Shown here piece by piece: positions 4,248-19,409 of a stretch of 45,106 nt of DNA. The notes under the pieces were generated by a model, which saw nothing but the letters and a program-made list of their open reading frames with translations, ran no database searches and was not told where the DNA came from. Each line of letters starts with the position of its first letter. The first letter of the stretch is position 1. Both the position numbers and the translations under genes were made by a program. Source of the DNA: an uncultured Bacteroidaceae bacterium (lineage in GTDB: Bacteria; Bacteroidota; Bacteroidia; Bacteroidales; GCA-2748055); NCBI GenBank assembly GCA_964583445.1, contig CAZOXI010000001.1, forward strand, positions 1 to 45,106, read 5' to 3'.

Positions 4248-6172
4248 TATCAGTTGATAACGTAACCATACGATTCGGAGGATTTACTCTTTTTGACAGC
4301 ATCTCATTTCAGCTCAACAAAAATGACCGCGTGGGGCTGGTGGGCCGCAATGGTGCCGGGAAGACCACCTTGCTGAACCTGATTGAAGGGCGGCAGCAGC
4401 CTGACGAGGGCAGCGTGGTGCGTTCCGGTGACACAGACATTGGTTACCTGCCCCAGCAGATGAAGCATTCAAGTTCCAGGACCCTGTATAATGAAACATT
4501 GCAGGCATTCGGGCATATCCTGGAGATGGAAGCCAGGATCGCCGCCCTGAACAAGGAGATGGAGGAGCGGAGGGATTATGAATCCGAGGGGTACATGAAA
4601 TTGATCGAGCAGCTTGGGACACTGACAGAGCGCTTCGAGCTTGAAGGTGGCAGTGCCATCCATGCAGATGTGGAGCAGACCCTGGTCGGCCTGGGATTCA
4701 GCCCGGCGGACATGGACCGTTCCGTGACCGAATTCTCCGGGGGATGGAGGATGCGGATCGAGCTGGCAAAGATCCTGTTAAGGAAACCGGATTATATCCT
4801 GCTGGATGAGCCCACCAATCACCTGGATATTGATTCCATCCAGTGGCTGGAAACTTACCTGTCCAATTTCGATGGCGGGGTGCTGCTTATTTCCCACGAC
4901 AGAATTTTTCTCGATCGTGTTACCAACCGGACCCTGGACCTTTCGTTGGGAAACATTTATGATTACAAAGTCGGTTATTCTGAATATGAAAAGCTGAAAC
5001 GGGAACGAATCGAAGTCCAGTCAGCCTCCTACCAGAACCAGCAAAAAATGATCAGGGATACGGAAAAGTTCATTGAGCGTTTCCGTTACAAAGCCACCAA
5101 GGCTGTGCAGGTGCAATCGCGTGTCAAACAGCTGGAAAAACTTGACAGGATCGAGGTGGAGCAGGAGGATACATTACAAATGAATCTCCGCTTTCCCGTT
5201 GCGAAGCGATCCGGGAAAATAGTGGTTGAAGCAGAGAAATTATCGAAATCATATGGTGACAACGAGGTGCTGAAGGATGTGGACCTTGTGATCCAGCGGG
5301 GAGAGAAGGTGGCGTTTGTGGGCCGTAACGGGGAGGGAAAGACCACCCTTTCGCGTATCATTGTCGGTGAACTGGAGTACAGCGGGGGATTCCGGTTGGG
5401 GCATAACGTGGAACTCGGCTATTTTGCGCAGAACCAGGATGAGCTCATGGATGAGAACAAGACCGTGTTTGAAACGGTGGATGCAGTGGCGGTGGGCGAT
5501 ATCCGGACAAAGATGCGGGATATTCTCGGGGCTTTCCTGTTCCGGGGTGAGGACGTCGATAAAAAGGTGAAAGTGTTGTCAGGAGGCGAGCGTTCGCGGC
5601 TGGCCATGGCGATGATGATCCTGCAGCCGTTCAACTTGCTGATTTTGGATGAGCCCACCAATCACCTGGATATGAATTCCAAGGATATCCTGAAAAATGC
5701 ATTGCTGCAGTATGACGGGACACTGATCGTGGTCTCGCACGACCGGGAATTCCTCGATGGACTCGTTGACAAGGTGTATGAATTCCGGAACAAGGGGATC
5801 AAGGAATATATCGGGGGAATCTTTGCGTTCCTCGAAAAGCGGAAGATCCGTTCCATCCGCGAGATCGAACGGCGCACCGGTACGAAGAAGTCCGTTCCGG
5901 AAAACCGTTCCGGGTCAAAGCAGGACTATGAGGCGAAGAAAGCATTTGAGCGTAAGCTGCGGAAGTATGAGCGTTCCGTAAAGGAGGTGGAGGACGCCAT
6001 AGCGGCGATGGAAAAAGAGCTCAGCGAGATGGACAGAATAATGGCAGATCCGGACAATATTGAAGACCAATCGCTGTTTGTTTCTTACAGGGAGAAGCGT
6101 CAGAAGCTGGACCGGTTAATGGAACAATGGGAAAAGGCATCCGCCGATCTTGAAAATTTGAGCAGCAGATGA
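4244..6172 (+). CDS. ABC-F family ATPase (two ABC cassettes, no TM domain)
   Basis: Two Walker A motifs (GRNGAGKTT, GRNGEGKTT), two signature motifs (FSGGWRMR, LSGGERSR), an inter-domain linker and a C-terminal coiled-coil. Confidence 0.9.
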   Translation: MISVDNVTIRFGGFTLFDSISFQLNKNDRVGLVGRNGAGKTTLLNLIEGRQQPDEGSVVRSGDTDIGYLPQQMKHSSSRTLYNETLQAFGHILEMEARIAALNKEMEERRDYESEGYMKLIEQLGTLTERFELEGGSAIHADVEQTLVGLGFSPADMDRSVTEFSGGWRMRIELAKILLRKPDYILLDEPTNHLDIDSIQWLETYLSNFDGGVLLISHDRIFLDRVTNRTLDLSLGNIYDYKVGYSEYEKLKRERIEVQSASYQNQQKMIRDTEKFIERFRYKATKAVQVQSRVKQLEKLDRIEVEQEDTLQMNLRFPVAKRSGKIVVEAEKLSKSYGDNEVLKDVDLVIQRGEKVAFVGRNGEGKTTLSRIIVGELEYSGGFRLGHNVELGYFAQNQDELMDENKTVFETVDAVAVGDIRTKMRDILGAFLFRGEDVDKKVKVLSGGERSRLAMAMMILQPFNLLILDEPTNHLDMNSKDILKNALLQYDGTLIVVSHDREFLDGLVDKVYEFRNKGIKEYIGGIFAFLEKRKIRSIREIERRTGTKKSVPENRSGSKQDYEAKKAFERKLRKYERSVKEVEDAIAAMEKELSEMDRIMADPDNIEDQSLFVSYREKRQKLDRLMEQWEKASADLENLSSR

Positions 6173-6222
6173 GCAGAAAACAGACGAAATTGCGTATTTT
6201 GTAAGATTACTGGAGATTCTGA

Positions 6223-7503
6223 ATGAGAAATATACATTACATCATATTGTCCTTGTTCCTGGTTGCAGGATGCACTGTCACACGGAATGTGAACGTTCCC
6301 GTTTCGCAGTTCTCTTCGATGTACAATCCCAGTGAGTTCTCCTTGAGTGCAGACTACCGGTTGTACCACATCAATGATGATATGACCTCCATGTACATCC
6401 GGTTGTTCCCGCGTGAGTTGCTGTTCAACCAGGCCAATGAGGCTGCTGAATACCGTGCACTGGTTGGGATCACCTATATTATATATGAGCTGGGGGAGGG
6501 ACGGGAGATTGTTGCGAAGAGCGATTCCACTACTTTCCAGATCAAACTAGGCAGGCAACATGAGCAGAATACCGCATATTTTACTACCCGCGTCCTGAAT
6601 ATAAGAAGTGGCAAACAGTACATGATCAGGATCGAATCGAAGGACATGAACAGGGGCTCTGTGGGCCTGGAACATATTTATATTGACAAGCGTAACAGTT
6701 TCTCTGCGCAAAATTTCAGTGTTGTTTCGGCGCAGACAGGGTACCCCCGTTTCCTGGATTATATCTCACCCAACGAGGTGTTTAAGCTTGATTACCGTGT
6801 AGAAGGATATGATACCATTTTTGTAGATTTTATTAAGTTCAGGAATCCTTATCCGAGGCCTCCCATCACGATGAATGCACCCTCTTTTTTCGAGGCAGCG
6901 CCGGATACCACCTTTGCCCTGGCATGGGCTGACAGTACGATTTTCACTTTGCCGGAGAAAGGAATGTATCATTTCCGGGTGGATACGACCCGGTCCGAGG
7001 GGATCACCCTCCACCGTTTCGGACCGGATTTTCCGCAGGTCCAGTCTGAAGAAGCACTGATGGAGGCGTTGTTCTACGTCGCGACACTTACCGAGTATAA
7101 CAATATGCGGCGGGAGGAAAATAAGAAACTCGCAGTGGATAATTTCTGGCTGGCGCGGGCCTCATCGATGGAGCGCTCGCGGGAATTGATCCGGGTGTAT
7201 TACAACCGTGTGGTTTATTCAAATCTCTATTTTACTACCAATCGGGAGGGATGGAAGACCGACCGGGGAATGATCTTTATTTTATTCGGTCCGCCGGATC
7301 GCATTCGCTCGGGGGGCTCAGAGGAGCGGTGGTACTATATTTCAAACCGGCAGGGGAAAATTATTGAATTCATCTTCGACCGTGTGCCCGGACAGTATTC
7401 AAATCATGACCTGGTCTGGCGAAAAAACGGTCAGTCGATGGGTTACGTCTCTTCTGCGGTCAGTGCATGGCGATCCGGTAAAGTTTACTCATTAAGCAGG
7501 TAA
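6223..7503 (+). CDS. GWxTD domain-containing lipoprotein
   Basis: Lipobox LFLVAGC near the N-terminus and a GWKTDRGMIFILFGPPD motif near the C-terminus. Confidence 0.85.
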   Translation: MRNIHYIILSLFLVAGCTVTRNVNVPVSQFSSMYNPSEFSLSADYRLYHINDDMTSMYIRLFPRELLFNQANEAAEYRALVGITYIIYELGEGREIVAKSDSTTFQIKLGRQHEQNTAYFTTRVLNIRSGKQYMIRIESKDMNRGSVGLEHIYIDKRNSFSAQNFSVVSAQTGYPRFLDYISPNEVFKLDYRVEGYDTIFVDFIKFRNPYPRPPITMNAPSFFEAAPDTTFALAWADSTIFTLPEKGMYHFRVDTTRSEGITLHRFGPDFPQVQSEEALMEALFYVATLTEYNNMRREENKKLAVDNFWLARASSMERSRELIRVYYNRVVYSNLYFTTNREGWKTDRGMIFILFGPPDRIRSGGSEERWYYISNRQGKIIEFIFDRVPGQYSNHDLVWRKNGQSMGYVSSAVSAWRSGKVYSLSR

Positions 7504-8715: not shown

Positions 8716-8852
8716 TGTTTTGGTATACTATATCCCCGGATGCTTAAAAACAGGTTTAAACTTTGAATTAATTATTTGTGTCTGTTTTTCTGTTATCCGG
8801 GCGAATGAATTATTATTTAACAGGGTTTTATCTAAAATTCTATGAAAGTTTA

Positions 8853-8875
8853 AATTTAACCAAGCTGGTTAAATT
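8853..8875. promoter_or_regulatory. perfect 10-bp inverted repeat AATTTAACCA-agc-TGGTTAAATT (candidate operator or MscS terminator)
   Basis: Read directly. It lies between the stop of the MscS gene (8944, minus) and the start of the Lrp/AsnC gene (8715, minus). Confidence 0.35.
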
Positions 8876-8943
8876 ATCAATAAGAGAAGGTATGTTATAA
8901 AATATTTAACTCCTTCCGGACTGGCAGGTGACTTCGTATCGTT

Positions 8944-10203
8944 TTAGTTCTGCTGTGCCAGTGCCCGCCAGTCGGCGCCGGTAGGATTCTGAAACACGCG
9001 GAGTTCAAATTCCGGTATCACTGCGAGGATGTGGTCGAAGATATCGGCCTGTATGGCTTCGTAGTTGGCCCAGGCCTGGTCATTGCTGAACACATAGATT
9101 TCAATGGGGATCCCGCGTTCTGTGGGTTGCAGGTGCCTGACCAGGAAGGTCATGTCCTGGTGAATCTTCGGATGGTTGTGCAGGTACAACTCCAGGTATT
9201 TTCTGAATGTACCCAGGTTGGTAAGTCTTCGTCCATTGATCAGGTCTGAAGTATCTATCCCCACTTTTTGGTTGAAGGCTTCGATCTCTTTTTCCTTTTC
9301 TTCGATATAGTTTTTCAGGATGCGGATCTCCTTAAATTTTTTCAATTCACTGCTGTCCAGGAATCGCACACTTTGCATGTCCAGGTTCACGCTTCTTTTG
9401 ATCCGTCTTCCGCCCGAATCCTCCATCCCTTTCCAGTTGTTGAAGGAGTCCTGCACCAGGGCGTAGGTCGGGATTGTTGCGATGGTCTTGTCCCAGTTCT
9501 GCACCTTCACGGTGTTGAGCCCGATATCGATCACATCTCCATCGGCGTTGTATTTGGGCATGGAGATCCAGTCGCCGACATTCACCATTTTATTTCCGGC
9601 CAGTTGTATACTGGCAACCAATCCGAGGATGGTATCCCTGAAGACCAGCATCAGCACGGCGGCAAATGCACCAAGCCCGGTAAGCAGTCCGTTGATGGAT
9701 TGTTCGGTGAGAATCGAGATGATGATGAGTCCTGCTATGATAAACACCAGGATCTTCACAAGTTGCACATATCCCTTGATATTCCGTCCTTTCGAAACCG
9801 GCAGTTGCTGGTAGATCTCGTGGAAGGCACCGATAACGGAATCCAGGACCAGTGCACTGATCATTACGATGTAGAGTTTGGTAATGATCCTGATGAAATC
9901 TACCAGTCCGGGTGCATCGATAAGAAAGATCACGGTAGCATTGACCACCAGTGCGGGGGCAATGTGGGCAATACGTTTGAAGACTTTTTTCTTCATTAGT
10001 ATATCGTCGTACTGGTTTTTGGAGCGTTTAACCAGTTTTCCGACCACCCTGACCAGGACTATTTTGGTGATCCGGTCTGCGAGGAAGGCCAGCAATACGA
10101 TAGCGACAAACACCGTGATGTTTTCTATGATCTGGACACCGTTTCCGGGAAGTCCAATATTTTCGAGGATTGACTGGTATTTATCAAGCAGGTTTTCAAT
10201 CAT
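8944..10203 (-). CDS. mechanosensitive ion channel (MscS family)
   Basis: N-terminal TM helices followed by the MscS beta-domain (VGDWISMPKYNADGDVIDIGLNTVKVQNWDKTIATIPTYAL). Confidence 0.9.
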   Translation of the reverse strand: MIENLLDKYQSILENIGLPGNGVQIIENITVFVAIVLLAFLADRITKIVLVRVVGKLVKRSKNQYDDILMKKKVFKRIAHIAPALVVNATVIFLIDAPGLVDFIRIITKLYIVMISALVLDSVIGAFHEIYQQLPVSKGRNIKGYVQLVKILVFIIAGLIIISILTEQSINGLLTGLGAFAAVLMLVFRDTILGLVASIQLAGNKMVNVGDWISMPKYNADGDVIDIGLNTVKVQNWDKTIATIPTYALVQDSFNNWKGMEDSGGRRIKRSVNLDMQSVRFLDSSELKKFKEIRILKNYIEEKEKEIEAFNQKVGIDTSDLINGRRLTNLGTFRKYLELYLHNHPKIHQDMTFLVRHLQPTERGIPIEIYVFSNDQAWANYEAIQADIFDHILAVIPEFELRVFQNPTGADWRALAQQN

Positions 10204-10307: not shown

Positions 10308-10315
10308 TATATTTG
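10308..10315 (+). promoter_or_regulatory. candidate Bacteroidota -7 promoter element (TATATTTG) for the sigma factor gene
   Basis: Exact TAnnTTTG match 43 nt upstream of the ATG at 10358. Confidence 0.3.
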
Positions 10316-10357: not shown

Positions 10358-10936
10358 ATGAAGAGCTTTTCAGATGAAGATATCATACTTGGCCTTAGAA
10401 AGCGGGACAACCAGGTGATCCAGTTCATCTACAAAAATGATTTCGGTAAGATAAGTGCGTTGATCACCAACAACAACGGATCTGATGATGATTCAGAGGA
10501 TGTCTTCCAGGAGGCGTTGATCATTATTTTCAAGCGATTACGTGAAGAGCCCGATTTTGAACTCACCAGTACCTTCAGTACCTATTTATATTCGGTTGCC
10601 CGCTTGATCTGGCTGAAGAAGCTGCGTGATACGAAGAAGATGGAGGTCACCGAGCTGAAGCGGGAGATGGAGGATTACATTGAATTCGAAGAGCCTCCTC
10701 CTGTCGCAGACAAGGACTTGCGCCTGGCGGTATACCAGCGTAACCTGAAGCTGATCCCCGAAGATTGTCAGAAAATCCTCACCTTAACGGCCAGGGATGT
10801 TGCCGCAAAGGATATTGCGGAGAAGCTGGGTTTCAGGAGTGATTCGTATGTGCGCAAGAGAAGACATTTCTGCAAAGAGTTTCTCGTGAACAGAATCAAG
10901 GAAGACAAGGAGTACCAGGCGTTGATTGAAGATTGA
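10358..10936 (+). CDS. RNA polymerase sigma-70 family factor, ECF-like
   Basis: 192 aa. Region 2-like DSEDVFQEALIIIFKRL...TYLYSVARLIWLKKLR and region 4 HTH (CQKILTLTARDVAAKDIAEKLGFRSDSYVRKRRHFC). Confidence 0.8.
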   Translation: MKSFSDEDIILGLRKRDNQVIQFIYKNDFGKISALITNNNGSDDDSEDVFQEALIIIFKRLREEPDFELTSTFSTYLYSVARLIWLKKLRDTKKMEVTELKREMEDYIEFEEPPPVADKDLRLAVYQRNLKLIPEDCQKILTLTARDVAAKDIAEKLGFRSDSYVRKRRHFCKEFLVNRIKEDKEYQALIED

Positions 10937-10974
10937 GTCGGATGTTCTCCCGGGGTTACTTATTTTTCTGCGGG

Positions 10975-13821
10975 TTACTTTCTTTTTACCAGGGCTTTCC
11001 TGATTTGTTTCCTGTAGATCACTCCTAAAACAATAATTGTAAATAACACCAGGATCAGCACCAGGTAGGATGATGCTGAGGTGGTATAGAGGGGTGTGTT
11101 ATCGCCCACCATCAGGAATGCAGACCAGAAGTAGGGATTTGCTTTCAGGTTGTCCGACGAATTGATATAATCGATCTTCGCCTGTCGCAGTGCTTTTTTC
11201 TTGCTTGATCCCTTCTTCAGGTTTTCATAGAAGTTGCTCATCAGTTCTGCACTGGAGAGGTCTGAAACCTGCCAGAGGGTCATAACGATACTTGGACACC
11301 CGGCATAGATAAATCCGCGTGCCATGCTCATCATTCCTTCCCCTTTTTGCATTTTTCCAAAGCCGCTGCTGCACGAGCTGAGCACCACCATGTCGGCATT
11401 CAGTGGCAGGTTGTATATTTCATACGTAAACAGGTCATGGTCCTGCGTCGTGTCGCTGAAGTTCCTGGTGAAAGCCAGTTTGGAGTACATCGGATTTTCG
11501 TCATCCATGATCGTATGCATCGCCAGGTGCAGCACCGAGTAATCAGATGCCAGTGCCTTGAAATTTGCTTCTGATGCTGCAGAATCGAGGTAGATATCTG
11601 CCGTCACTGTGTTAGAGATGTTCTTCACCTCTTCTTCTGCACCCGGCAGTGGCATCAGGAAATCGCGTTCTGACTGTCGGTTCCAGATGGATTGCAGCTC
11701 TTCATCCAGCAGGTTCTGATATTCGGGAGCGAATGCAAGCACTTTGTTATTGGGGGATTTGGTCCGGATCCGCTCGCTGAACAGCAGGGTAGAGGAGTAG
11801 GAGTACCCCACTGAAAGGTCGTATATGAGATAGGGCAGGTTCCTGTAATTGGGGCGGGTATCGTCGAAATCGCTGCTTGTCAGAAATGATTCAAAGGGCA
11901 GGTACATGATTGCGCCGTCGGGCACAAAGGTGATCTCCCGGCTATCCGTCACCTCCAGCACCGGTGCCACCAGGATATCGTAGAAGTATTTGGCCAGTGC
12001 CGTGTAGTTTTGAAAGGTTTGGTGCACATCATTGCTGAAATCCTGGTTCTGCAGCAGCGAGAAGTAGTCGAAGCACAGTTGAGGAAAAAGTGAATCTACA
12101 GGCTCCGTAAGGACTTCGATGTTCTCTTTATCGATCACAAATGTCGTAAGAATGGAATCTGACAGGACGTACTCGACGAGGCATTCTTTGTGATTTAAAT
12201 GATCCTGTATCTGTTTCGGTGCAATAAAGTCTTGGCTATATTTTAAATTAAAATAGTTTGGAAAATTATTTTCAAGAGAATCTAATAACAAATTGTATCT
12301 ATTCTTTATTTTTAAATAGGATTGATTAAAACTTGCAATAATTTTTTCGTTTGGATTTTCTTCGGCTCTTTCTTTATAAATTAATTCAGATAGGTGATTT
12401 AATTCCTTTTTTAATGAGTCTTCAAGAGTTTTTAAATTATTGGGTAGATCAGAAAATTTTATTGCCTCACCACTTTTAATTTCAGAATATAATGAAAAAG
12501 CTTTCATGTTTTCTGCATACAAAAAGGCTTTGAATAAATATTTTACATCCTCAGTTGTTTTATATAATCTAACAGCTACATCAATAGCTTCGTGAATTAT
12601 CGATATACTGGTACTAGATTCAATAAATATACTTTCTTCATTGCGCATATGAAGTCTAAAGACCATTAAATACTCAATGCTTTTTGAAAAATTGTTTAGG
12701 GATTCAATTAAATCATCTAGATTGTTGTTTTGTGCATATAATTTTAGAGAAGCGTTACCGTAAAGTCTATGATAGTCGATAATTGTTCTATTAAAAGATT
12801 GTTCATTTAAAATGTTTTGGGCAGGATCTGAATTTTCAATGTTAAACTCCAAATTACTAAATCCATCAGATAACCAATCTATACAGCTTATATAGTCATT
12901 CTTCAAATAGTGTATTTGTCCAATTAAAAGGTAAGTCTGATATAGTTTTTCAAAATGAGTAGTTTTGCCGCTTTCCTTGTATTTAATATTCTCTAATAAA
13001 TAAGCAAGAGCTCTGTTAAGATCTCCTAATTTTGTATAAATAGAGGCTGCTCTAAAATTATAAATCAACAAATACTTATACTTACTTTTGAGATTTTTAT
13101 CATAGATTTCCTTTGCTAATCTAGTTTGGTCTAAAGCTTTCAAGTAATAATATTCATCTTCTGAATAATCACCTTTATTTTGATAAGCTTCAGCTAAAAA
13201 CATATGCTTATTGAACAGAAGGTCATTAACTAGTTCTCTTTGTTCTTGATTAAGATTATTATCCTTTATATCTAGACTGCTCAAGATATCAATTGCTTCA
13301 TCATTTCTGTTTTGCTCAACTAAAATATTTCCTATATTGACATAAACCTGCGCGTATTGATATTTATCTGTAGTCTGTTTATTTTCAAAAAATTCTAAAC
13401 AATATCTATAGTAAAGTTCTGCTTCTTTATAGTCTGAGTAATTAAAATAGATGTTTGCCTTTGTATTATAGATATAACCCAAATAAGGAGAGTTCGGATT
13501 GTTTAAGATAAAATATTTCTCAGCTAAATTTAGATGATGTAAAGCCTTTTTGTAGTTATTTTTGTTTCTATATACGACTCCTAAATTAGCATTTGTTATT
13601 ACTGTATTTTCATCATTAACACCATAATAAGCTTTTTGATACTGTAATATCTTATTATAGTAGTACTCGGCACTATCATATTGTCCAGCATTATAGAATT
13701 TAAAAGCTAGTGTATCATAACTCTTAATCGTTCTGCTTCTAAAGATTGAATCCTGATTCTGTGCATTAGAGTTAATACAGAGAAATGATGTCAGTACTAA
13801 TATAGATAATACTTTTTCCAT
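10975..13821 (-). CDS. TPR-repeat / CHAT (caspase-like) domain protein with signal peptide and C-terminal TM anchor
   Basis: 948 aa. Signal peptide MEKVLSILVLTSFLCINSNAQ, then about 540 aa of Y/N/K-rich TPR-like repeats. The CHAT domain has an intact His (LHLAMHT) and Cys (VVLSSCSSG) dyad. C-terminal helix YLVLILVLFTIIVLGVIY followed by a basic tail. Confidence 0.9.
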   Translation of the reverse strand: MEKVLSILVLTSFLCINSNAQNQDSIFRSRTIKSYDTLAFKFYNAGQYDSAEYYYNKILQYQKAYYGVNDENTVITNANLGVVYRNKNNYKKALHHLNLAEKYFILNNPNSPYLGYIYNTKANIYFNYSDYKEAELYYRYCLEFFENKQTTDKYQYAQVYVNIGNILVEQNRNDEAIDILSSLDIKDNNLNQEQRELVNDLLFNKHMFLAEAYQNKGDYSEDEYYYLKALDQTRLAKEIYDKNLKSKYKYLLIYNFRAASIYTKLGDLNRALAYLLENIKYKESGKTTHFEKLYQTYLLIGQIHYLKNDYISCIDWLSDGFSNLEFNIENSDPAQNILNEQSFNRTIIDYHRLYGNASLKLYAQNNNLDDLIESLNNFSKSIEYLMVFRLHMRNEESIFIESSTSISIIHEAIDVAVRLYKTTEDVKYLFKAFLYAENMKAFSLYSEIKSGEAIKFSDLPNNLKTLEDSLKKELNHLSELIYKERAEENPNEKIIASFNQSYLKIKNRYNLLLDSLENNFPNYFNLKYSQDFIAPKQIQDHLNHKECLVEYVLSDSILTTFVIDKENIEVLTEPVDSLFPQLCFDYFSLLQNQDFSNDVHQTFQNYTALAKYFYDILVAPVLEVTDSREITFVPDGAIMYLPFESFLTSSDFDDTRPNYRNLPYLIYDLSVGYSYSSTLLFSERIRTKSPNNKVLAFAPEYQNLLDEELQSIWNRQSERDFLMPLPGAEEEVKNISNTVTADIYLDSAASEANFKALASDYSVLHLAMHTIMDDENPMYSKLAFTRNFSDTTQDHDLFTYEIYNLPLNADMVVLSSCSSGFGKMQKGEGMMSMARGFIYAGCPSIVMTLWQVSDLSSAELMSNFYENLKKGSSKKKALRQAKIDYINSSDNLKANPYFWSAFLMVGDNTPLYTTSASSYLVLILVLFTIIVLGVIYRKQIRKALVKRK

Positions 13822-14025
13822 CTATAAAATATTCAAGCTGGTATAAACATTGCAGCAAGGTAATAGAAAATTGTTATTTTTTCAAAAAATTAAATACCAC
13901 ATAGTCAATGAGTTATAAAATTAATTTCACTTTTTTTTATTTTTTTGGGTAACGTTTTCTGGTGATTTGGAATAAAGGGTTGAACGATCAACAAAACAAG
14001 TATTAACCCTAATTGAAAAAACGTC

Positions 14026-14142
14026 ATGAAAACTTCAAAAACAAACATCGAGAATTTTGCAATTGATGCAATGACCCAGGAAGAAATGAATTTTTTAACA
14101 GGTGGTGGAGAACCTATTGATATGATTATTCCTCCCAGGTAG
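14026..14142 (+). CDS. 38-aa double-glycine-leader peptide precursor (not in the ORF track)
   Basis: MKTSKTNIENFAIDAMTQEEMNFLTGG/GEPIDMIIPPR. Gly at -1/-2, hydrophobic residues at -4, -7, -12 and -15, and Glu at -8 fit the GG-leader consensus. ATG start, TAG stop. Confidence 0.55.
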   Translation: MKTSKTNIENFAIDAMTQEEMNFLTGGGEPIDMIIPPR

Positions 14143-14204
14143 TAAAAAATTCCAGAAGCTGTTTATAAATTGATTCAGCAAATTGAGATAATACTTCGAT
14201 ATTA

Positions 14205-14860
14205 CTCAACGGAAACTATCCAGTCACGGAAACGTCCGGGCTGTAGCAAACAAGGAAACAAGTACCGGTGGCATACGGTGTGTGCGGAGCCGGATGACAT
14301 ACACTCAGTCATGAGATGAAGCAGACCGCTGCTATTCAAAGGTGGAGTCGAACGAGCCGGACCAGGAAACGAACTGGTAAGGTAGCATTTCGGAACACCC
14401 GGGGATACACGGAACTTGCGGAAGATGATCCAGATCATGAAGCTGGGAAGGAACGCGACCAGGCATTGAAGCGTGCCGGAAGTGCGAAGCTCAGGAGGAG
14501 CATGTGGACAGGAAAATCAGGATGACCAACAAATGGAACCTGTATACCCCCCTGGCACACAACCCTCTGAAAGTGCCGCGAATAAATGCACGCAGGGATC
14601 CATACAATGGAGCCAGAGATGCCCGATAGCGCAAAGCTAAGAAAGAGCAGCGAACGGGAGCAGTCCGGGGAATCAGAAAATGAAACTGACGGATGCCCGA
14701 AGATCGCAACGCTCAGTCAACGCTGAGAATCTGGCAGAAAAGAGACGGAACATAAGCTCAGACTTCTGAATACCATACCGTTACCGGGAGAGATCCAGGT
14801 AAACCGATGTAGGATGAACAGCGAGCTGATCATTGACAACCTATTATGAGAGAATATTTA
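14205..14860 (+). ncRNA. candidate long noncoding/leader RNA: ORF-poor, purine-rich, GGA/GGAAC-dense block
   Basis: No ORF longer than 78 aa on either strand, and none looks protein-like. I counted 29 GGA trinucleotides and 9 GGAA(A)C motifs, all on the plus strand. G+C is about 57% in a sampled 60-nt line, against about 20% in the adjacent block. Several short hairpins are present, e.g. ATGAT-ccag-ATCAT and CTCAG-tcaacg-CTGAG. Confidence 0.3.
14211..14236 (+). promoter_or_regulatory. candidate ECF-type promoter GGAAAC-N16-CGTC
   Basis: GGAAAC at 14211-14216, a 16-nt spacer, then CGTC at 14233-14236. It sits at the left edge of the purine-rich block, upstream of the anti-sigma-like gene. Confidence 0.3.
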
Positions 14861-14882
14861 TGAAAAACCGATACATATAGTT

Positions 14883-15665
14883 ATGAAACGAGACAGGCAC
14901 ATTATCCAGAAGTACCTCGATCATGACCTATCAGACAAGGACATGAAGAGGTTCGAAGCGGATCTTGAAAGCAGTCCCGAGCTTCAGGCAGACCTGGGAT
15001 TACACCAGGAGATTGATGAAGCACTGGCCGATACAGAAGTATTGAGCTTTAGGGATCAGCTGACGGATCTGCGGAAAGAGACCAAGAAGGACGGAAAGAA
15101 TGCGAAAGCACCGATCCGTTTCAACAAGCCCTGGCATTATGCTGCATCAGCAGCCATTGCCCTGATCCTGGCCATCGGCCTTGCTTCAGTACTTGACAGA
15201 CCACTGAGCAATAAGGATTTGCTTAAAAAGTATTACAAACCTTACGAGGTGGCACTGATGAACAGGTCGCTCAACGAAAATTTGACGACAGCGGAAAACA
15301 TGATGGCAGAGACCTACCTCACTAAGGCCAGCCTTTTCTACCAGGAAGGGGATTTCAAAAATGCCATCGAGCACTTTGAGCTGTTCCTCGAGAACCAGCC
15401 GAACGATGCCGGCGCACAACTTTACCTCGGTATCTCTTTTTACGAAGAGGACAGGTATCACGATGCAGAAGCATCACTGACCAAAGTGGTCGATCACCAG
15501 GACAACCTATATGTCGATAAGGCAGAATGGTACCTGGGACTCTGTTACCTGGCACTGAACGAGAATGACCTCGCACGCAGAAAGTTTGCAGGACTCGCAT
15601 CAGGGAACAGTGACAAGGCTGAAGAAGCGAAGCAGTTATTGCGCAAGATCAAGGTGCGTGATTAA
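14883..15665 (+). CDS. anti-sigma-factor-like single-pass membrane protein with extracytoplasmic TPR domain
   Basis: The N-terminus resembles anti-sigma domains (IQKYLDHDLSDKDMKRFEADLESSPELQADL). One TM helix (AASAAIALILAIGLASVL), then TPR repeats (YQEGDFKNAIEHFELFLENQPNDAGAQLYLGISFYEEDRYHDA). Confidence 0.7.
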   Translation: MKRDRHIIQKYLDHDLSDKDMKRFEADLESSPELQADLGLHQEIDEALADTEVLSFRDQLTDLRKETKKDGKNAKAPIRFNKPWHYAASAAIALILAIGLASVLDRPLSNKDLLKKYYKPYEVALMNRSLNENLTTAENMMAETYLTKASLFYQEGDFKNAIEHFELFLENQPNDAGAQLYLGISFYEEDRYHDAEASLTKVVDHQDNLYVDKAEWYLGLCYLALNENDLARRKFAGLASGNSDKAEEAKQLLRKIKVRD

Positions 15666-15725
15666 CCAAAGACTTCAAAAAAAACAGAACTGTGTACTGT
15701 ACTGTATTGAAGGAAAGAGGCTGTA

Positions 15726-16580
15726 ATGGACGAAAACCCAACATACGAGGAGTTGATGGCTGCAAACCGTAAGCTTAGGGATAAGGTGGATTGGCTGGAA
15801 GGCGTCTACCACACTCACCGCGATGCCGGGCTGCAGGTCAGATCAAGGTTCCTGTCCAATATCACACACGAGATCAGGACACCCATGAACGCGATCCTCG
15901 GGTTTTCAGACCTGCTGACAAACAGTTCTCTTACAGACAGCGAGCGGGAGGAATATATTGAGTACATCTCCCACAACAGTAAAACGCTCTTAAAAATAAT
16001 GGATAACATCATCGACCTGACACTCCTCGAGACTGATAATCTCGAAATGAAAAAGGAGGAGGTCTTCGCCGAAGACCTGTTCAGGGAGATCTACGAGTTC
16101 TATAACTCGTAGGTCGTCAGGGGGATGAGTTACAGGGTGGCGCTTCTGATGACGACACCCACCAGGTACAGACGGATCACAGTCGACGCTGATGGCTACA
16201 GGCTGCACAGGATCCTCGACAACCTGGTCAACAACGCGATCTCCCAACAGTCAAAGGGGGTGGTCGAAATGAAGATGGATATCAAGGATGAGAAAAAAGT
16301 CTTTTTTACCATCGTCAGCGAGAGAAATGAGCTGCTCGAAGAAAGAGCCCAAATGATCTTTGAAAATAATGGTGACACGGATGACTGGCACAATCACCTC
16401 GATGCCACGGGCCTGGCCTACAAGCTGGCACGTGACCTGGCAAAAGCCATGGGTGGTTCTGTCAGACTGGTGCAGGTAGACGAGAAAAGAATCGGCGTGT
16501 GCATGGAACTACCGGTAAAGAAAATCGGTATTGCCCATAAGAAAGACACCCGAAAGAAGATATCCACGCTGTTGAATTAA
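15726..16580 (+). pseudogene. sensor-less histidine kinase interrupted by an in-frame TAG (16110-16112), with a degenerate ATP-binding domain
   Basis: ORFs 15726-16112 and 16125-16580 share one frame. The first carries a coiled-coil and an H-box (FLSNITHEIRTPMNAILGFSDLL). The second carries an N-box (HRILDNLVNNAI) but no DxGxG G1 box. Confidence 0.7.
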
Positions 16581-18627: not shown

Positions 18628-18934
18628 AATCCAAAATTAGACTTTATTTTTCCAAATACCTATCCCAATAGAATGTAGGTATGACAGCCTGAATATGAAT
18701 TGATTTAATAATTTGGCGGGAATGTTAATAACTCACCAGGAAGCCACTGTATATATACTGTAAATTCGTATGAAAATGATGGTCAGGGTATACATTGAAT
18801 AGCAGAAGGGGCAGTGGGGAAGCTGTTGAAGACCACGAAGGGTGATAATCATGACGGTCGCCTTTTTATGGTGAAAAAGATTGATCTCTACGGCACATTT
18901 TGTTGATCTGAAATGACCCCCGATGCGTGTCTGA

Positions 18935-19279
18935 TCAATGTCTGACCTGAAATGTTAGTAAACACTGCCAGCTTTTTCTGGAGATTGCTGGTAAGCCTGT
19001 CTGAGAAACCCGGGGCTGATTGCGATGGAAAGGAATTTGAGCTGTTGAAGCCCCGGTTTTCAGTAGGGTTCTTTGAGTAACGAAATCAACGCAGTGAAGC
19101 AACCGCCTGTCTTTTACTCCTGTCTCTACCAAAGGGTTAGAATTTGCTGCAATTACTGGCAGGTGTGTGCCCGGATTCAGGAGGTCCGGGCTTTTTGCTT
19201 CCTGTGTCATGTATTCTTCAATAAATTTATCCCTCGACCAGAACAGAATCACCGCTCCCCCGCCATGTATCCTCATCAA
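18935..19279 (-). pseudogene. possible remnant of an alpha/beta-hydrolase (HGGG oxyanion-hole type) gene
   Basis: The 114-aa ORF begins ...YFLMRIHGGGAVILFW, which resembles the HGGG block of HSL-type esterases. No GxSxG nucleophile motif follows. It lies in a 780-bp stretch that otherwise lacks genes. Confidence 0.25.
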
Positions 19280-19365
19280 GAAATAACTGGTGATTGTGGT
19301 ATGTGGAGAATTTCATGGAAAACCGTCTGCTAAATAATTATTTTTTCCTTCCTGCCTTAAATATG

Positions 19366-19373
19366 TACATTTG
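19366..19373 (+). promoter_or_regulatory. candidate Bacteroidota -7 promoter element (TACATTTG)
   Basis: Exact TAnnTTTG match 37 nt upstream of the ATG at 19410. Confidence 0.3.
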
Positions 19374-19409
19374 TGGTGCGCTTACTAACCTTACAAATTA
19401 ATATTAAAT

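Follow-up and report, generated by a model that had tools for sequence, protein, structure and literature searches.

A conserved Bacteroidota module of an ECF-type sigma factor, a TPR anti-sigma-like protein, a TPR-CHAT protease and a double-glycine leader peptide: a candidate peptide-gated switch

Positions 1 to 45,106 of contig CAZOXI010000001.1 (GenBank assembly GCA_964583445.1), from an uncultured Bacteroidaceae bacterium, are referred to here as the window; this stretch of 45,106 nucleotides (nt) carries a gene cluster built around an extracytoplasmic function (ECF)-type sigma factor and a large protein in which tetratricopeptide repeats (TPR) are joined to a caspase-like CHAT domain. An initial annotation had seen in it a candidate peptide-gated caspase-like switch made of six elements, namely the sigma factor gene, the TPR-CHAT gene, a short open reading frame (ORF) for a peptide with a double-glycine (GG) leader, a spacer, a gene for a single-pass TPR protein resembling an anti-sigma factor, and a histidine kinase gene. 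The ORF listing together with family searches bore out all six at the positions collected in Table 1. The kinase, anti-sigma-like and peptide genes are divergent from the CHAT gene, and the sigma gene is convergent with it. Cumulatively, our findings show that the cluster is a real, uncharacterised module, a split, peptide-linked relative of known CHAT/ECF systems that is widespread in Bacteroidota. The conserved module, the micro-ORF, the predicted topologies and the structural class of the earlier interpretation have stood up, and the idea of CHAT as leader protease, the claim of novelty and the role given to the spacer have not.

Table 1. Features of the locus in window coordinates (aa, amino acids; TM, transmembrane; AF2, AlphaFold2)
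Feature	Position	Strand	Basis or remark
Housekeeping-type TATATTTG box upstream of sigma gene (presumed)	10308-10315	+	conserved in the window's clade
ECF-type sigma factor, 192 aa, sigma2 and sigma4 regions	10358-10936	+	TIGR02937, Sigma70_r2, family alignment
TPR-CHAT protein, 948 aa, predicted periplasmic and membrane-anchored	10975-13821	-	Pfam CHAT, AF2, Foldseek, topology
TPR-CHAT: C-terminal TM anchor, aa 911-941, then K/R-rich tail	10999-11091	-	conserved in orthologues
TPR-CHAT: CHAT caspase-like domain, aa 545-910	11092-12189	-	AF2, Pfam CHAT
TPR-CHAT: catalytic C817	11371-11373	-	invariant dyad
TPR-CHAT: catalytic H769	11515-11517	-	invariant dyad
TPR-CHAT: helical/TPR sensor half, aa 22-541	12199-13758	-	AF2, TPR families
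TPR-CHAT: signal peptide, aa 1-21	13759-13821	-	N-terminal h-region
Low-GC mosaic cassette (CHAT aa 1 to ~530, divergent promoter region, peptide gene)	12200-14170	.	composition, phylogeny
ECF-type bipartite motif GGTAACGTTT-N11-GGAATAA	13948-13975	+	ends 51 nt upstream of peptide ATG
GG-leader peptide gene, 38 aa, MKTSKTNIENFAIDAMTQEEMNFLTGG followed by GEPIDMIIPPR	14026-14142	+	conservation, TIGR04149
Peptide leader, 27 aa (...EEMNFLTGG)	14026-14106	+	
Peptide core GEPIDMIIPPR	14107-14139	+	
Purine-rich non-coding spacer, peptide gene to anti-sigma-like gene	14143-14882	+	no ORF, no Rfam match
Single-pass TPR anti-sigma-like protein, 260 aa	14883-15665	+	TPR families, AF2, operon context
Anti-sigma-like protein: N-terminal cytoplasmic helical domain, aa 1 to ~70			predicted
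Anti-sigma-like protein: TM segment, aa 85-109	~15135-15209	+	sole hydrophobic segment; helical in AF2 model
Anti-sigma-like protein: periplasmic TPR domain, ~aa 136-255	15288-15647	+	C-terminal side of TM
Soluble histidine kinase, HisKA and HATPase_c	15726-16580	+	domain searches
In-frame TAG in kinase gene	16110-16112	+	Lys codon (AAG) in relatives

The sigma factor has sigma2 and sigma4 regions only, lies within the length range of about 170–200 aa that is typical of the ECF class, and matches the model of that class, TIGR02937 (sigma70-ECF), with 45.6 bits over model positions 24–164 of 165 (cut-off 42.9); its score against Pfam Sigma70_r2, 23.7 bits, is just under the cut-off of 24. Two cysteines of the sigma4 region, C137 and C172, are invariant in 18 diverse family members and may represent a redox or metal site. 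The large neighbouring protein is matched by Pfam CHAT (PF12770) over aa 609–907 with an E-value of 1.5e-54 and by multiple TPR families over aa 30–285, and H765 and the catalytic H769 and C817 are invariant across 21 aligned full-length orthologues. In the AF2 model (pLDDT 83.5, pTM 0.78), aa 1–541 are all-helical repeats and aa 545–910 a caspase-like alpha/beta domain, followed by a terminal helix. The top 20 Foldseek matches to this model were Craspase, DdvA and separase (probability 1.0, TM-score up to 0.58 on the target), among them the structures 7zoq, 7y84 and 8d9f of Craspase Csx29 and 8rw5 and 8rot of DdvA; by its model, the protein belongs to the separase/craspase/DdvA-type TPR-CHAT class. 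A profile search of the PDB with the CHAT alignment returned TPR proteins only, and nothing informative on the protease domain. The N-terminus carries a short hydrophobic h-region ending in an A/G-Q motif, which is conserved in orthologues. Because of this signal-like N-terminus, the C-terminal TM segment with its Lys/Arg tail and the positive-inside rule, most of the protein is predicted to lie in the periplasm, held at the inner membrane by the C-terminal anchor.

The 260-aa protein is predicted to have the single-pass, N-in topology of class I anti-sigma factors, and the predicted topologies place its TPR domain and the CHAT protease together in the periplasm, in agreement with the initial annotation. 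It has no conserved Cys or His, public sources name the family only 'tetratricopeptide repeat protein', and searches of the PDB and Pfam with its N-terminus gave sub-threshold matches only. In relatives, 27 anti-sigma-like genes, paralogues or orthologues of the window copy, abut the sigma gene and are co-operonic with it; the window sigma gene has no adjacent anti-sigma gene. In a neighbour-joining tree the sigma-linked paralogues stand apart from the peptide- and kinase-linked ones. We infer from these features that the protein may sequester the sigma factor as its anti-sigma. In the earlier assignment of this role, the single TM pass and the TPR ectodomain have been upheld, and the basis of the assignment has shifted mainly to the operon adjacency of paralogues and orthologues with sigma.

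The 38-codon micro-ORF proved to be a genuine GG-leader peptide gene that is kept at homologous loci. Its leader is canonical by inspection, with hydrophobic residues at −4, −7, −12 and −15 (L24, M21, M16 and I13), E at −8 (E20) and, after a T, GG at −2/−1 (G26 and G27) directly before the first G of the core, and its aa 1–28 match TIGR04149 with 21.2 bits (E=1.9e-4), below the cut-off of 25. The profile check proposed at the outset gave a strong match for CHAT and a score above the cut-off for TIGR02937, with Sigma70_r2 and the TIGR04149 leader both falling below theirs. The gene is kept divergent from CHAT in at least 36 loci, down to ~30% CHAT identity; the leader has the family form MKT…F…[ED][LM]N[FY]L[KR]GG, and its residue pattern recurs in more than 36 homologues. 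The cores are short, acidic and Cys-free (GEPIDMIIPP, GDPVEDLVHPP and DDDLWPP, with KxADAYADLD in Prolixibacteraceae), and the gene divergent from CHAT typically encodes an acidic core in which a D is followed by two hydrophobic residues, any residue and two prolines. In Prolixibacteraceae loci the gene with the KxADAYADLD core is sometimes present in 2–3 tandem copies, and the kinase is absent.

To place the cluster among its relatives, full-length CHAT orthologues were collected by protein search, and their contigs show the same neighbours. A scan of reference genomes, one per species, gave at least 596 relatives, from Bacteroidales, Prolixibacteraceae, Marinifilaceae, Lentimicrobiaceae and others, and 80 loci, with flanks of up to 10 kb, were retained (individual loci carry L numbers below); profiles built from the window and the first relatives were then run against them. 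Among 42 species-level CHAT loci with at least 3.5 kb on each side of CHAT, the anti-sigma-like TPR protein was present in all 42, the cognate ECF-type sigma factor in 33, the soluble histidine kinase in 26 and the GG-leader peptide, as a lower bound, in at least 25. In the reciprocal approach, metagenome contigs were searched with the sigma family, and 13 of the 16 loci flanked by 4.5 kb or more on either side carried CHAT, and 12 the anti-sigma-like gene. Because co-occurrence holds both from CHAT and from sigma, the gene set is a conserved functional module and not a chance juxtaposition. The expectation that the sigma gene, the TPR anti-sigma-like gene and a GG-leader micro-ORF would accompany TPR-CHAT orthologues was confirmed in the search from CHAT, and the search from sigma confirmed it for CHAT and the anti-sigma-like gene, with clustering far beyond chance. 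In an all-against-all clustering of neighbours from 86 loci, no further gene family was common to different architectures, and the MscS, DUF3127, FKBP and methyltransferase neighbours reflect clade-specific synteny only.

A further link between the peptide and the sigma factor, absent from the initial annotation, is provided by the bipartite motif upstream of the peptide gene, which is the single match in the 45-kb window even when 3 mismatches are allowed (expected 0.10). In its family form, GGT[ACT]AC[CG]TTT-N11-GGAAT[AT]A, the motif has 40 matches in 1.4 Mb of related loci, as compared with 1.0 in shuffles; 28 of the 40 copies sit 38–112 nt upstream of peptide genes, and most of the others precede GG peptides that had been missed by the hidden Markov model (HMM). 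Under a relaxed definition, the motif also stands immediately before sigma at 14 of 62 loci, where sigma and anti-sigma almost always form an operon; such an arrangement is a classic mark of ECF autoregulation. A −35-like AAC element with a T-tract, plus autoregulation, is a hallmark of ECF promoters, and the motif is most likely the promoter of the cognate sigma factor. Because one and the same motif precedes both peptide genes and sigma/anti-sigma operons, the peptide gene is very likely a direct sigma target. The motif is not present upstream of the window sigma gene. The Bacteroidetes housekeeping −7 consensus is TAnnTTTG, which the TATATTTG box at that place presumably represents, and a TAnnTTTG box precedes 33 of 62 sigma genes in related loci; a scan with the generic sigma-70 consensus, which is unsuited to Bacteroidota, gave a count not above shuffles. 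In L037, the ECF-type motif recurs (10954–10981) upstream of a 65-aa ORF resembling a helix-turn-helix protein, and in some species the sigma regulon may extend beyond the signalling peptide. For the 5' untranslated region of the peptide gene, RNAalifold with 12 sequences found no consensus structure, a GGGTT/AACCC hairpin being out of register across clades.

The peptide gene shares an unusual composition with one half of the CHAT gene, a feature likewise absent from the initial annotation. GC content is ~0.27 over the cassette and ~0.6 elsewhere in the locus according to composition profiles, and GC at third codon positions (GC3) is ~0.2 for CHAT aa 1–520 and 0.31 for the peptide gene, as compared with ~0.65 for CHAT aa 545–948 and the neighbouring genes, so that the GC3 step falls inside the CHAT gene at about aa 520–545. 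The same step is found in independent assemblies of the clade (L001, L003, L004, L008, L010, L011 and L040), which rules out a chimeric assembly. CHAT diverges about twice as fast in its N-terminal half as in its C-terminal half: the window protein is 55% identical to that of L008 in the N-terminal half and 86% in the CHAT half, and the corresponding values for L004 are 39% and 76%. Moreover, the two halves are phylogenetically incongruent, with L004 and L010 being 86% identical in the C-terminal half and 37% in the N-terminal half, where L004 pairs with L011 (51%). The simplest reading of these patterns is that the peptide and the TPR sensor would be exchanged by recombination as one cassette, and their co-inheritance suggests a ligand/receptor pair. 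Ligand/receptor pairs exchanged as a unit are known as pherotype cassettes in Gram-positive systems. The anti-sigma-like gene has normal GC and lies outside the cassette. Of the earlier suggestion that the TPR arrays act as peptide receptors, the part concerning the CHAT TPR half is favoured by this linkage, and the part concerning the anti-sigma TPR domain, which is not co-inherited with the peptide, is not.

The module occurs in several architectures. In type B loci (L006, L023, L027, L033, L035 and L038) there are two anti-sigma-like paralogues, one abutting sigma and the other in a peptide/TPR-protein/kinase operon, and in many loci a sigma/anti-sigma operon beside CHAT is the sole arrangement. 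In those type B loci with enough flank (L027, L033, L035 and L038), the operon continues downstream of the kinase with LytTR proteins of 104–137 aa that have no REC domain, a 732-aa Peptidase_C39/ATP-binding cassette (ABC) exporter, that is, a peptidase-containing ABC transporter (PCAT), and HlyD. Because these fuller loci encode the PCAT within the peptide operon, it is probably a PCAT, and not CHAT, that cuts the GG leader and exports the peptide. Maturation of the leader by CHAT, which had been proposed for the window, is thereby improbable, and CHAT as the GG-leader peptidase was dropped from our main reading. Within the type B operon of L033, a second, Cys-rich GG-leader peptide (6283–6456) adjoins a radical-SAM enzyme (4780–6189).

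In Prolixibacteraceae (L042 7231–8763, L046 15671–17182 and others), the anti-sigma-like protein is ~510 aa long, and its TM segment and TPR domain are set apart by an unassigned insertion of ~250 aa. On the long-read metagenome-assembled contigs L021, L024, L026 and L030, the CHAT gene is fragmented, and in L026 and L030 the peptide gene as well; these split genes are probably assembly frameshift errors and not true pseudogenes. Near the locus, between Methyltransf_30 and NTP_transferase genes, L001 (1080–2303), L003 (827–2068) and L005 (1339–2478) carry a tyrosine-recombinase (Phage_integrase) gene that appears to be missing in the window (about 18628–19409) and in L088; the site looks like an integration hotspot unrelated to the module.

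The histidine kinase was described initially as sensor-less and interrupted, which is correct: it has neither a hydrophobic segment nor a sensor domain, and in the window both of its domains are present in a gene interrupted by the TAG codon. Relatives have an intact kinase of 276–288 aa (L088, L001, L003 and L005), including L088, which is 94% identical to the window at the DNA level, and the single TAG reflects either an error of the assembly or a loss that this strain has undergone recently. The kinase is not module-wide, being present in only ~60% of loci.

The spacer is exactly 740 nt long and without a credible ORF, as had been noted, and it is no core component, since family-wide the peptide and anti-sigma-like genes lie 60 to 740 nt apart, and farthest apart in the window. 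Its 5' block (~14143–14470) and 3' block (14748–14882) align with the closest relatives and the middle does not, and it is 93% identical to its counterpart in the 94%-identical relative, as is other intergenic DNA. No Rfam match was obtained in the spacer or anywhere in the window at either the gathering threshold or E<=1, and no plus-strand terminator was detected in the spacer. RNAalifold predicted a modest fold without real covariation for the 5' block; L010 was mis-placed in that alignment, and its 'compensatory' counts were disregarded. Antisense ORFs of 175–194 aa called by gene callers in the spacers of L001 and L088 were rejected as artefacts of a pyrimidine-rich antisense strand, since their length is not conserved, they are absent in the window and they have no family match. 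We conclude that the spacer is lineage-specific and not part of the core module. Within it, a block (14218–14335) conserved in L001, L008 and L088 contains the imperfect palindrome CCGGTG-GCATAC-N3-GT(G/A)TGC…CCGG, with no Rfam match and no clear covariation, and might be bound by a protein or form a small RNA element.

Several known systems bear on how such a module could work. The initial statement that no characterised ECF pathway is gated by a CHAT protease is outdated: Csx30, an inhibitor that binds the ECF-like CASP-sigma, is cleaved by the TPR-CHAT protein Csx29 (PMC10028731), and for DdvA, an anti-sigma with a periplasmic TPR-CHAT region, self-cleavage at site 1 before RseP acts has been proposed, with this architecture reported in Myxococcota and one Comamonas only (PMC11506125). 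Like DdvA/DdvS, the module would couple a periplasmic TPR-CHAT protein with a His-Cys dyad to an ECF sigma factor via a single-pass anti-sigma, here a putative one, and the step proposed below for CHAT, that of a site-1 protease before RseP, is the one proposed for DdvA. Unlike in DdvA, the TPR-CHAT protein stands alone: it has a signal peptide, is anchored at its C-terminus and carries no anti-sigma domain. The anti-sigma-like protein is encoded by a gene of its own, its ectodomain is a small TPR domain, and a CHCC zinc site is absent; the module also differs in its sigma-driven GG peptide and soluble kinase, in the PCAT, HlyD and LytTR of fuller loci, in having no CBASS/CRISPR regulon and in its phylum, Bacteroidota. 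Craspase, of type III-E CRISPR, likewise is a TPR-CHAT protein, provides the best structural matches and controls the inhibitor of an ECF-like sigma by proteolysis. However, Craspase is cytoplasmic, RNA-guided and Cas7-11-bound, whereas the module's protease is predicted to be extracytoplasmic, with a peptide as the candidate trigger, and neither cas genes nor the Cas7-11/gRAMP, Csx30 and Csx31 families were found among the conserved neighbours of the 86 loci, nor did PADLOC give a match.

In regulated intramembrane proteolysis of anti-sigmas (RseA/DegS/RseP and RsiW/PrsW/RasP), a periplasmic site-1 cut made on an extracytoplasmic cue is followed by the action of a site-2 protease. The module would share with these systems a single-pass anti-sigma and the logic of site 1 followed by site 2; it differs in that the candidate site-1 protease is a clan-CD CHAT enzyme and not a serine protease or metalloprotease, and in that the candidate cue is a self-made, exported peptide. 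ComC/ComAB/ComDE and BlpC/BlpAB/BlpHR are Gram-positive pheromone circuits with GG-leader peptides. The module resembles them in the GG leader, in the C39 ABC exporter, histidine kinase and LytTR protein of fuller loci, in the control of the peptide gene by the pathway it probably feeds (autoinduction) and in the pherotype-like cassette of peptide and sensor. It is unlike them in that the output is an ECF sigma factor with a putative anti-sigma and not a phosphorylated LytTR regulator, the host is diderm, the kinase is a soluble HisKA protein, LytTR has no receiver domain and a CHAT protease is integral. Similarity to the radical-SAM-modified precursors of TIGR04149, which are ribosomally synthesized and post-translationally modified peptides (RiPPs), is confined to the leader (below the cut-off), since the core is Cys-free and no radical-SAM maturase is linked to the module except beside the second peptide of L033. 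The main text of an ECF re-classification paper (PMC7826278) does not mention CHAT, and we found no description of this module in the literature on CHAT, ECF sigma factors, Bacteroidetes and double-glycine peptides.

We propose that the module forms a peptide-gated loop of four core parts, the ECF-type sigma factor, the single-pass TPR anti-sigma-like protein, the anchored periplasmic TPR-CHAT protease and the GG-leader peptide gene, with the kinase as a frequent accessory. A housekeeping-type promoter would drive the sigma gene, and the anti-sigma-like protein would sequester the sigma factor, as homology, topology and operon adjacency in relatives suggest. Free sigma would transcribe the peptide gene, which is well supported by the promoter motif, and probably also the downstream anti-sigma-like and kinase genes. 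A C39-peptidase ABC exporter encoded elsewhere in the genome would then cleave the pre-peptide behind its GG and export it, and the mature, acidic GEPIDMIIPPR may be recognised by the hypervariable N-terminal TPR half of CHAT. By analogy with DdvA and RseA/DegS/RseP, the CHAT protease, once activated by its ligand, could cut the anti-sigma on the periplasmic side in the manner of a site-1 protease, with intramembrane proteolysis and release of sigma to follow. The outcome would be a peptide-autoinducing loop, in which the kinase branch would be broken by the nonsense codon in the window genome. We give this complete mechanism a probability of roughly 45%. A more far-reaching version, that of a quorum-sensing-like circuit of new design in Bacteroidota, in which a sigma-driven peptide, a CHAT-TPR receptor and anti-sigma cleavage are combined with exchange of 'pherotype' cassettes between lineages, is rather speculative, and we regard it as doubtful at present.

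Several observations weigh against the proposed loop. Sequence matches of the 260-aa protein to anti-sigma factors are weak (25.7 bits for NF052375, whose cut-off is 100, and E=0.2 for RsrA), zf-HC2 is below threshold in 7 of 20 family members, and AF2 gives the N-terminus as four short helices (aa 2–69) with low to moderate confidence. The window copy, moreover, falls in the peptide/kinase-linked clade and not in the sigma-adjacent one, and it does not lie beside sigma; the only anti-sigma candidate of the window is therefore that paralogue. Sigma is missing from the flanks in 9 of the 42 CHAT loci, and the peptide was not found in about one third of loci, with short-ORF detection being insensitive. 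The CHAT gene itself has no ECF-type motif, and no REC-domain protein was present in any locus examined. Finally, tblastn detected no PCAT, HlyD, LytTR or radical-SAM homologue in the window, in line with the earlier observation that exporter and maturase are lacking there; unless its circuit is incomplete, this organism must carry the exporter gene outside the window.

The roles within the module could also be distributed differently. The peptide might be received by the small TPR domain of the anti-sigma-like protein, possibly jointly with the soluble kinase that is translationally coupled to it, and CHAT might trim peptide tails after PP-[RK] or degrade the signal, acting as a modulator and not as a site-1 protease. 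Trimming would be compatible with the fact that many peptides stop exactly at PP[RK] and that close relatives bear extra tails; Arg/Lys specificity occurs in related clan-CD enzymes, TPR domains are classical peptide binders, and the anti-sigma-like and kinase genes overlap or abut in many loci (8721–9467 and 7955–8728 in L033). However, the peptide gene is co-inherited with the TPR half of CHAT and not with the anti-sigma TPR domain, whose GC is normal, the type B peptides (…DDLWPP…) have no basic residue after PP, and the kinase is absent in ~40% of loci, while CHAT and the anti-sigma-like protein always co-occur. This distribution of roles is thus unlikely, if worth keeping in mind. Somewhat harder to support is an envelope-threat or phage switch of the DdvA/DdvS type, in which the hypervariable TPR half of CHAT senses a cue that is foreign or derived from the envelope, CHAT removes the anti-sigma and the peptide is the output, as alarm, kin signal or effector. 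The nearest structural and architectural precedents, DdvA and Craspase, are indeed defence regulators, a fast-evolving, recombining, low-GC sensor half resembles arms-race loci, and the peptide is very likely a sigma target. Nevertheless, PADLOC gave no defence-system match for any component, there are no defence genes among the conserved neighbours of the loci, the neighbours in the window's clade are housekeeping genes, and the physical and compositional linkage of peptide and sensor half is more simply that of a ligand/receptor pair, which together make a defence switch improbable in our view.

A bacteriocin or RiPP locus, regulated by the sigma factor, the anti-sigma-like protein and the kinase, with CHAT as an immunity or processing accessory, would account for the resemblance of the leader to the TIGR04149 precursor family, for PCAT and HlyD in type B loci and for the radical-SAM enzyme by the second, Cys-rich GG peptide of L033. 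We hold such a locus to be quite improbable, because the CHAT-linked cores, with their 10–25 aa, are acidic, Cys-free and Pro-rich, unlike cationic or hydrophobic bacteriocins, and are without the residues that are usually modified, and neither a maturase nor an immunity-like gene is conserved with the module. As to a chance juxtaposition of unrelated genes around a spurious micro-ORF, the individual HMM scores for sigma region 2, the peptide leader and the anti-sigma N-terminus are only weak, but the bidirectional co-occurrence across Bacteroidales, Prolixibacteraceae, Marinifilaceae and Lentimicrobiaceae and the conservation of the peptide and its promoter have already refuted it.

To our knowledge, peptide-based cell–cell signalling is essentially uncharacterised in Bacteroidota, and we know of no periplasmic TPR-CHAT protein tied to an ECF sigma factor other than DdvA, nor of a trigger for DdvA. 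The module described here offers a candidate ligand and a predicted promoter for the sigma factor, and its protease and putative anti-sigma are separable. Because cultured carriers exist (L037, L044, L046, L048, L050, L056 and L060), with Marinifilum, Labilibaculum, Prolixibacter, Sunxiuqinia and Ancylomarina among the genera, the idea of a caspase-like site-1 protease is directly testable. If true, the proposed loop would represent a new input mechanism for ECF signalling and a compact switch of transcription that is gated by a peptide and whose specificities have diversified in nature.

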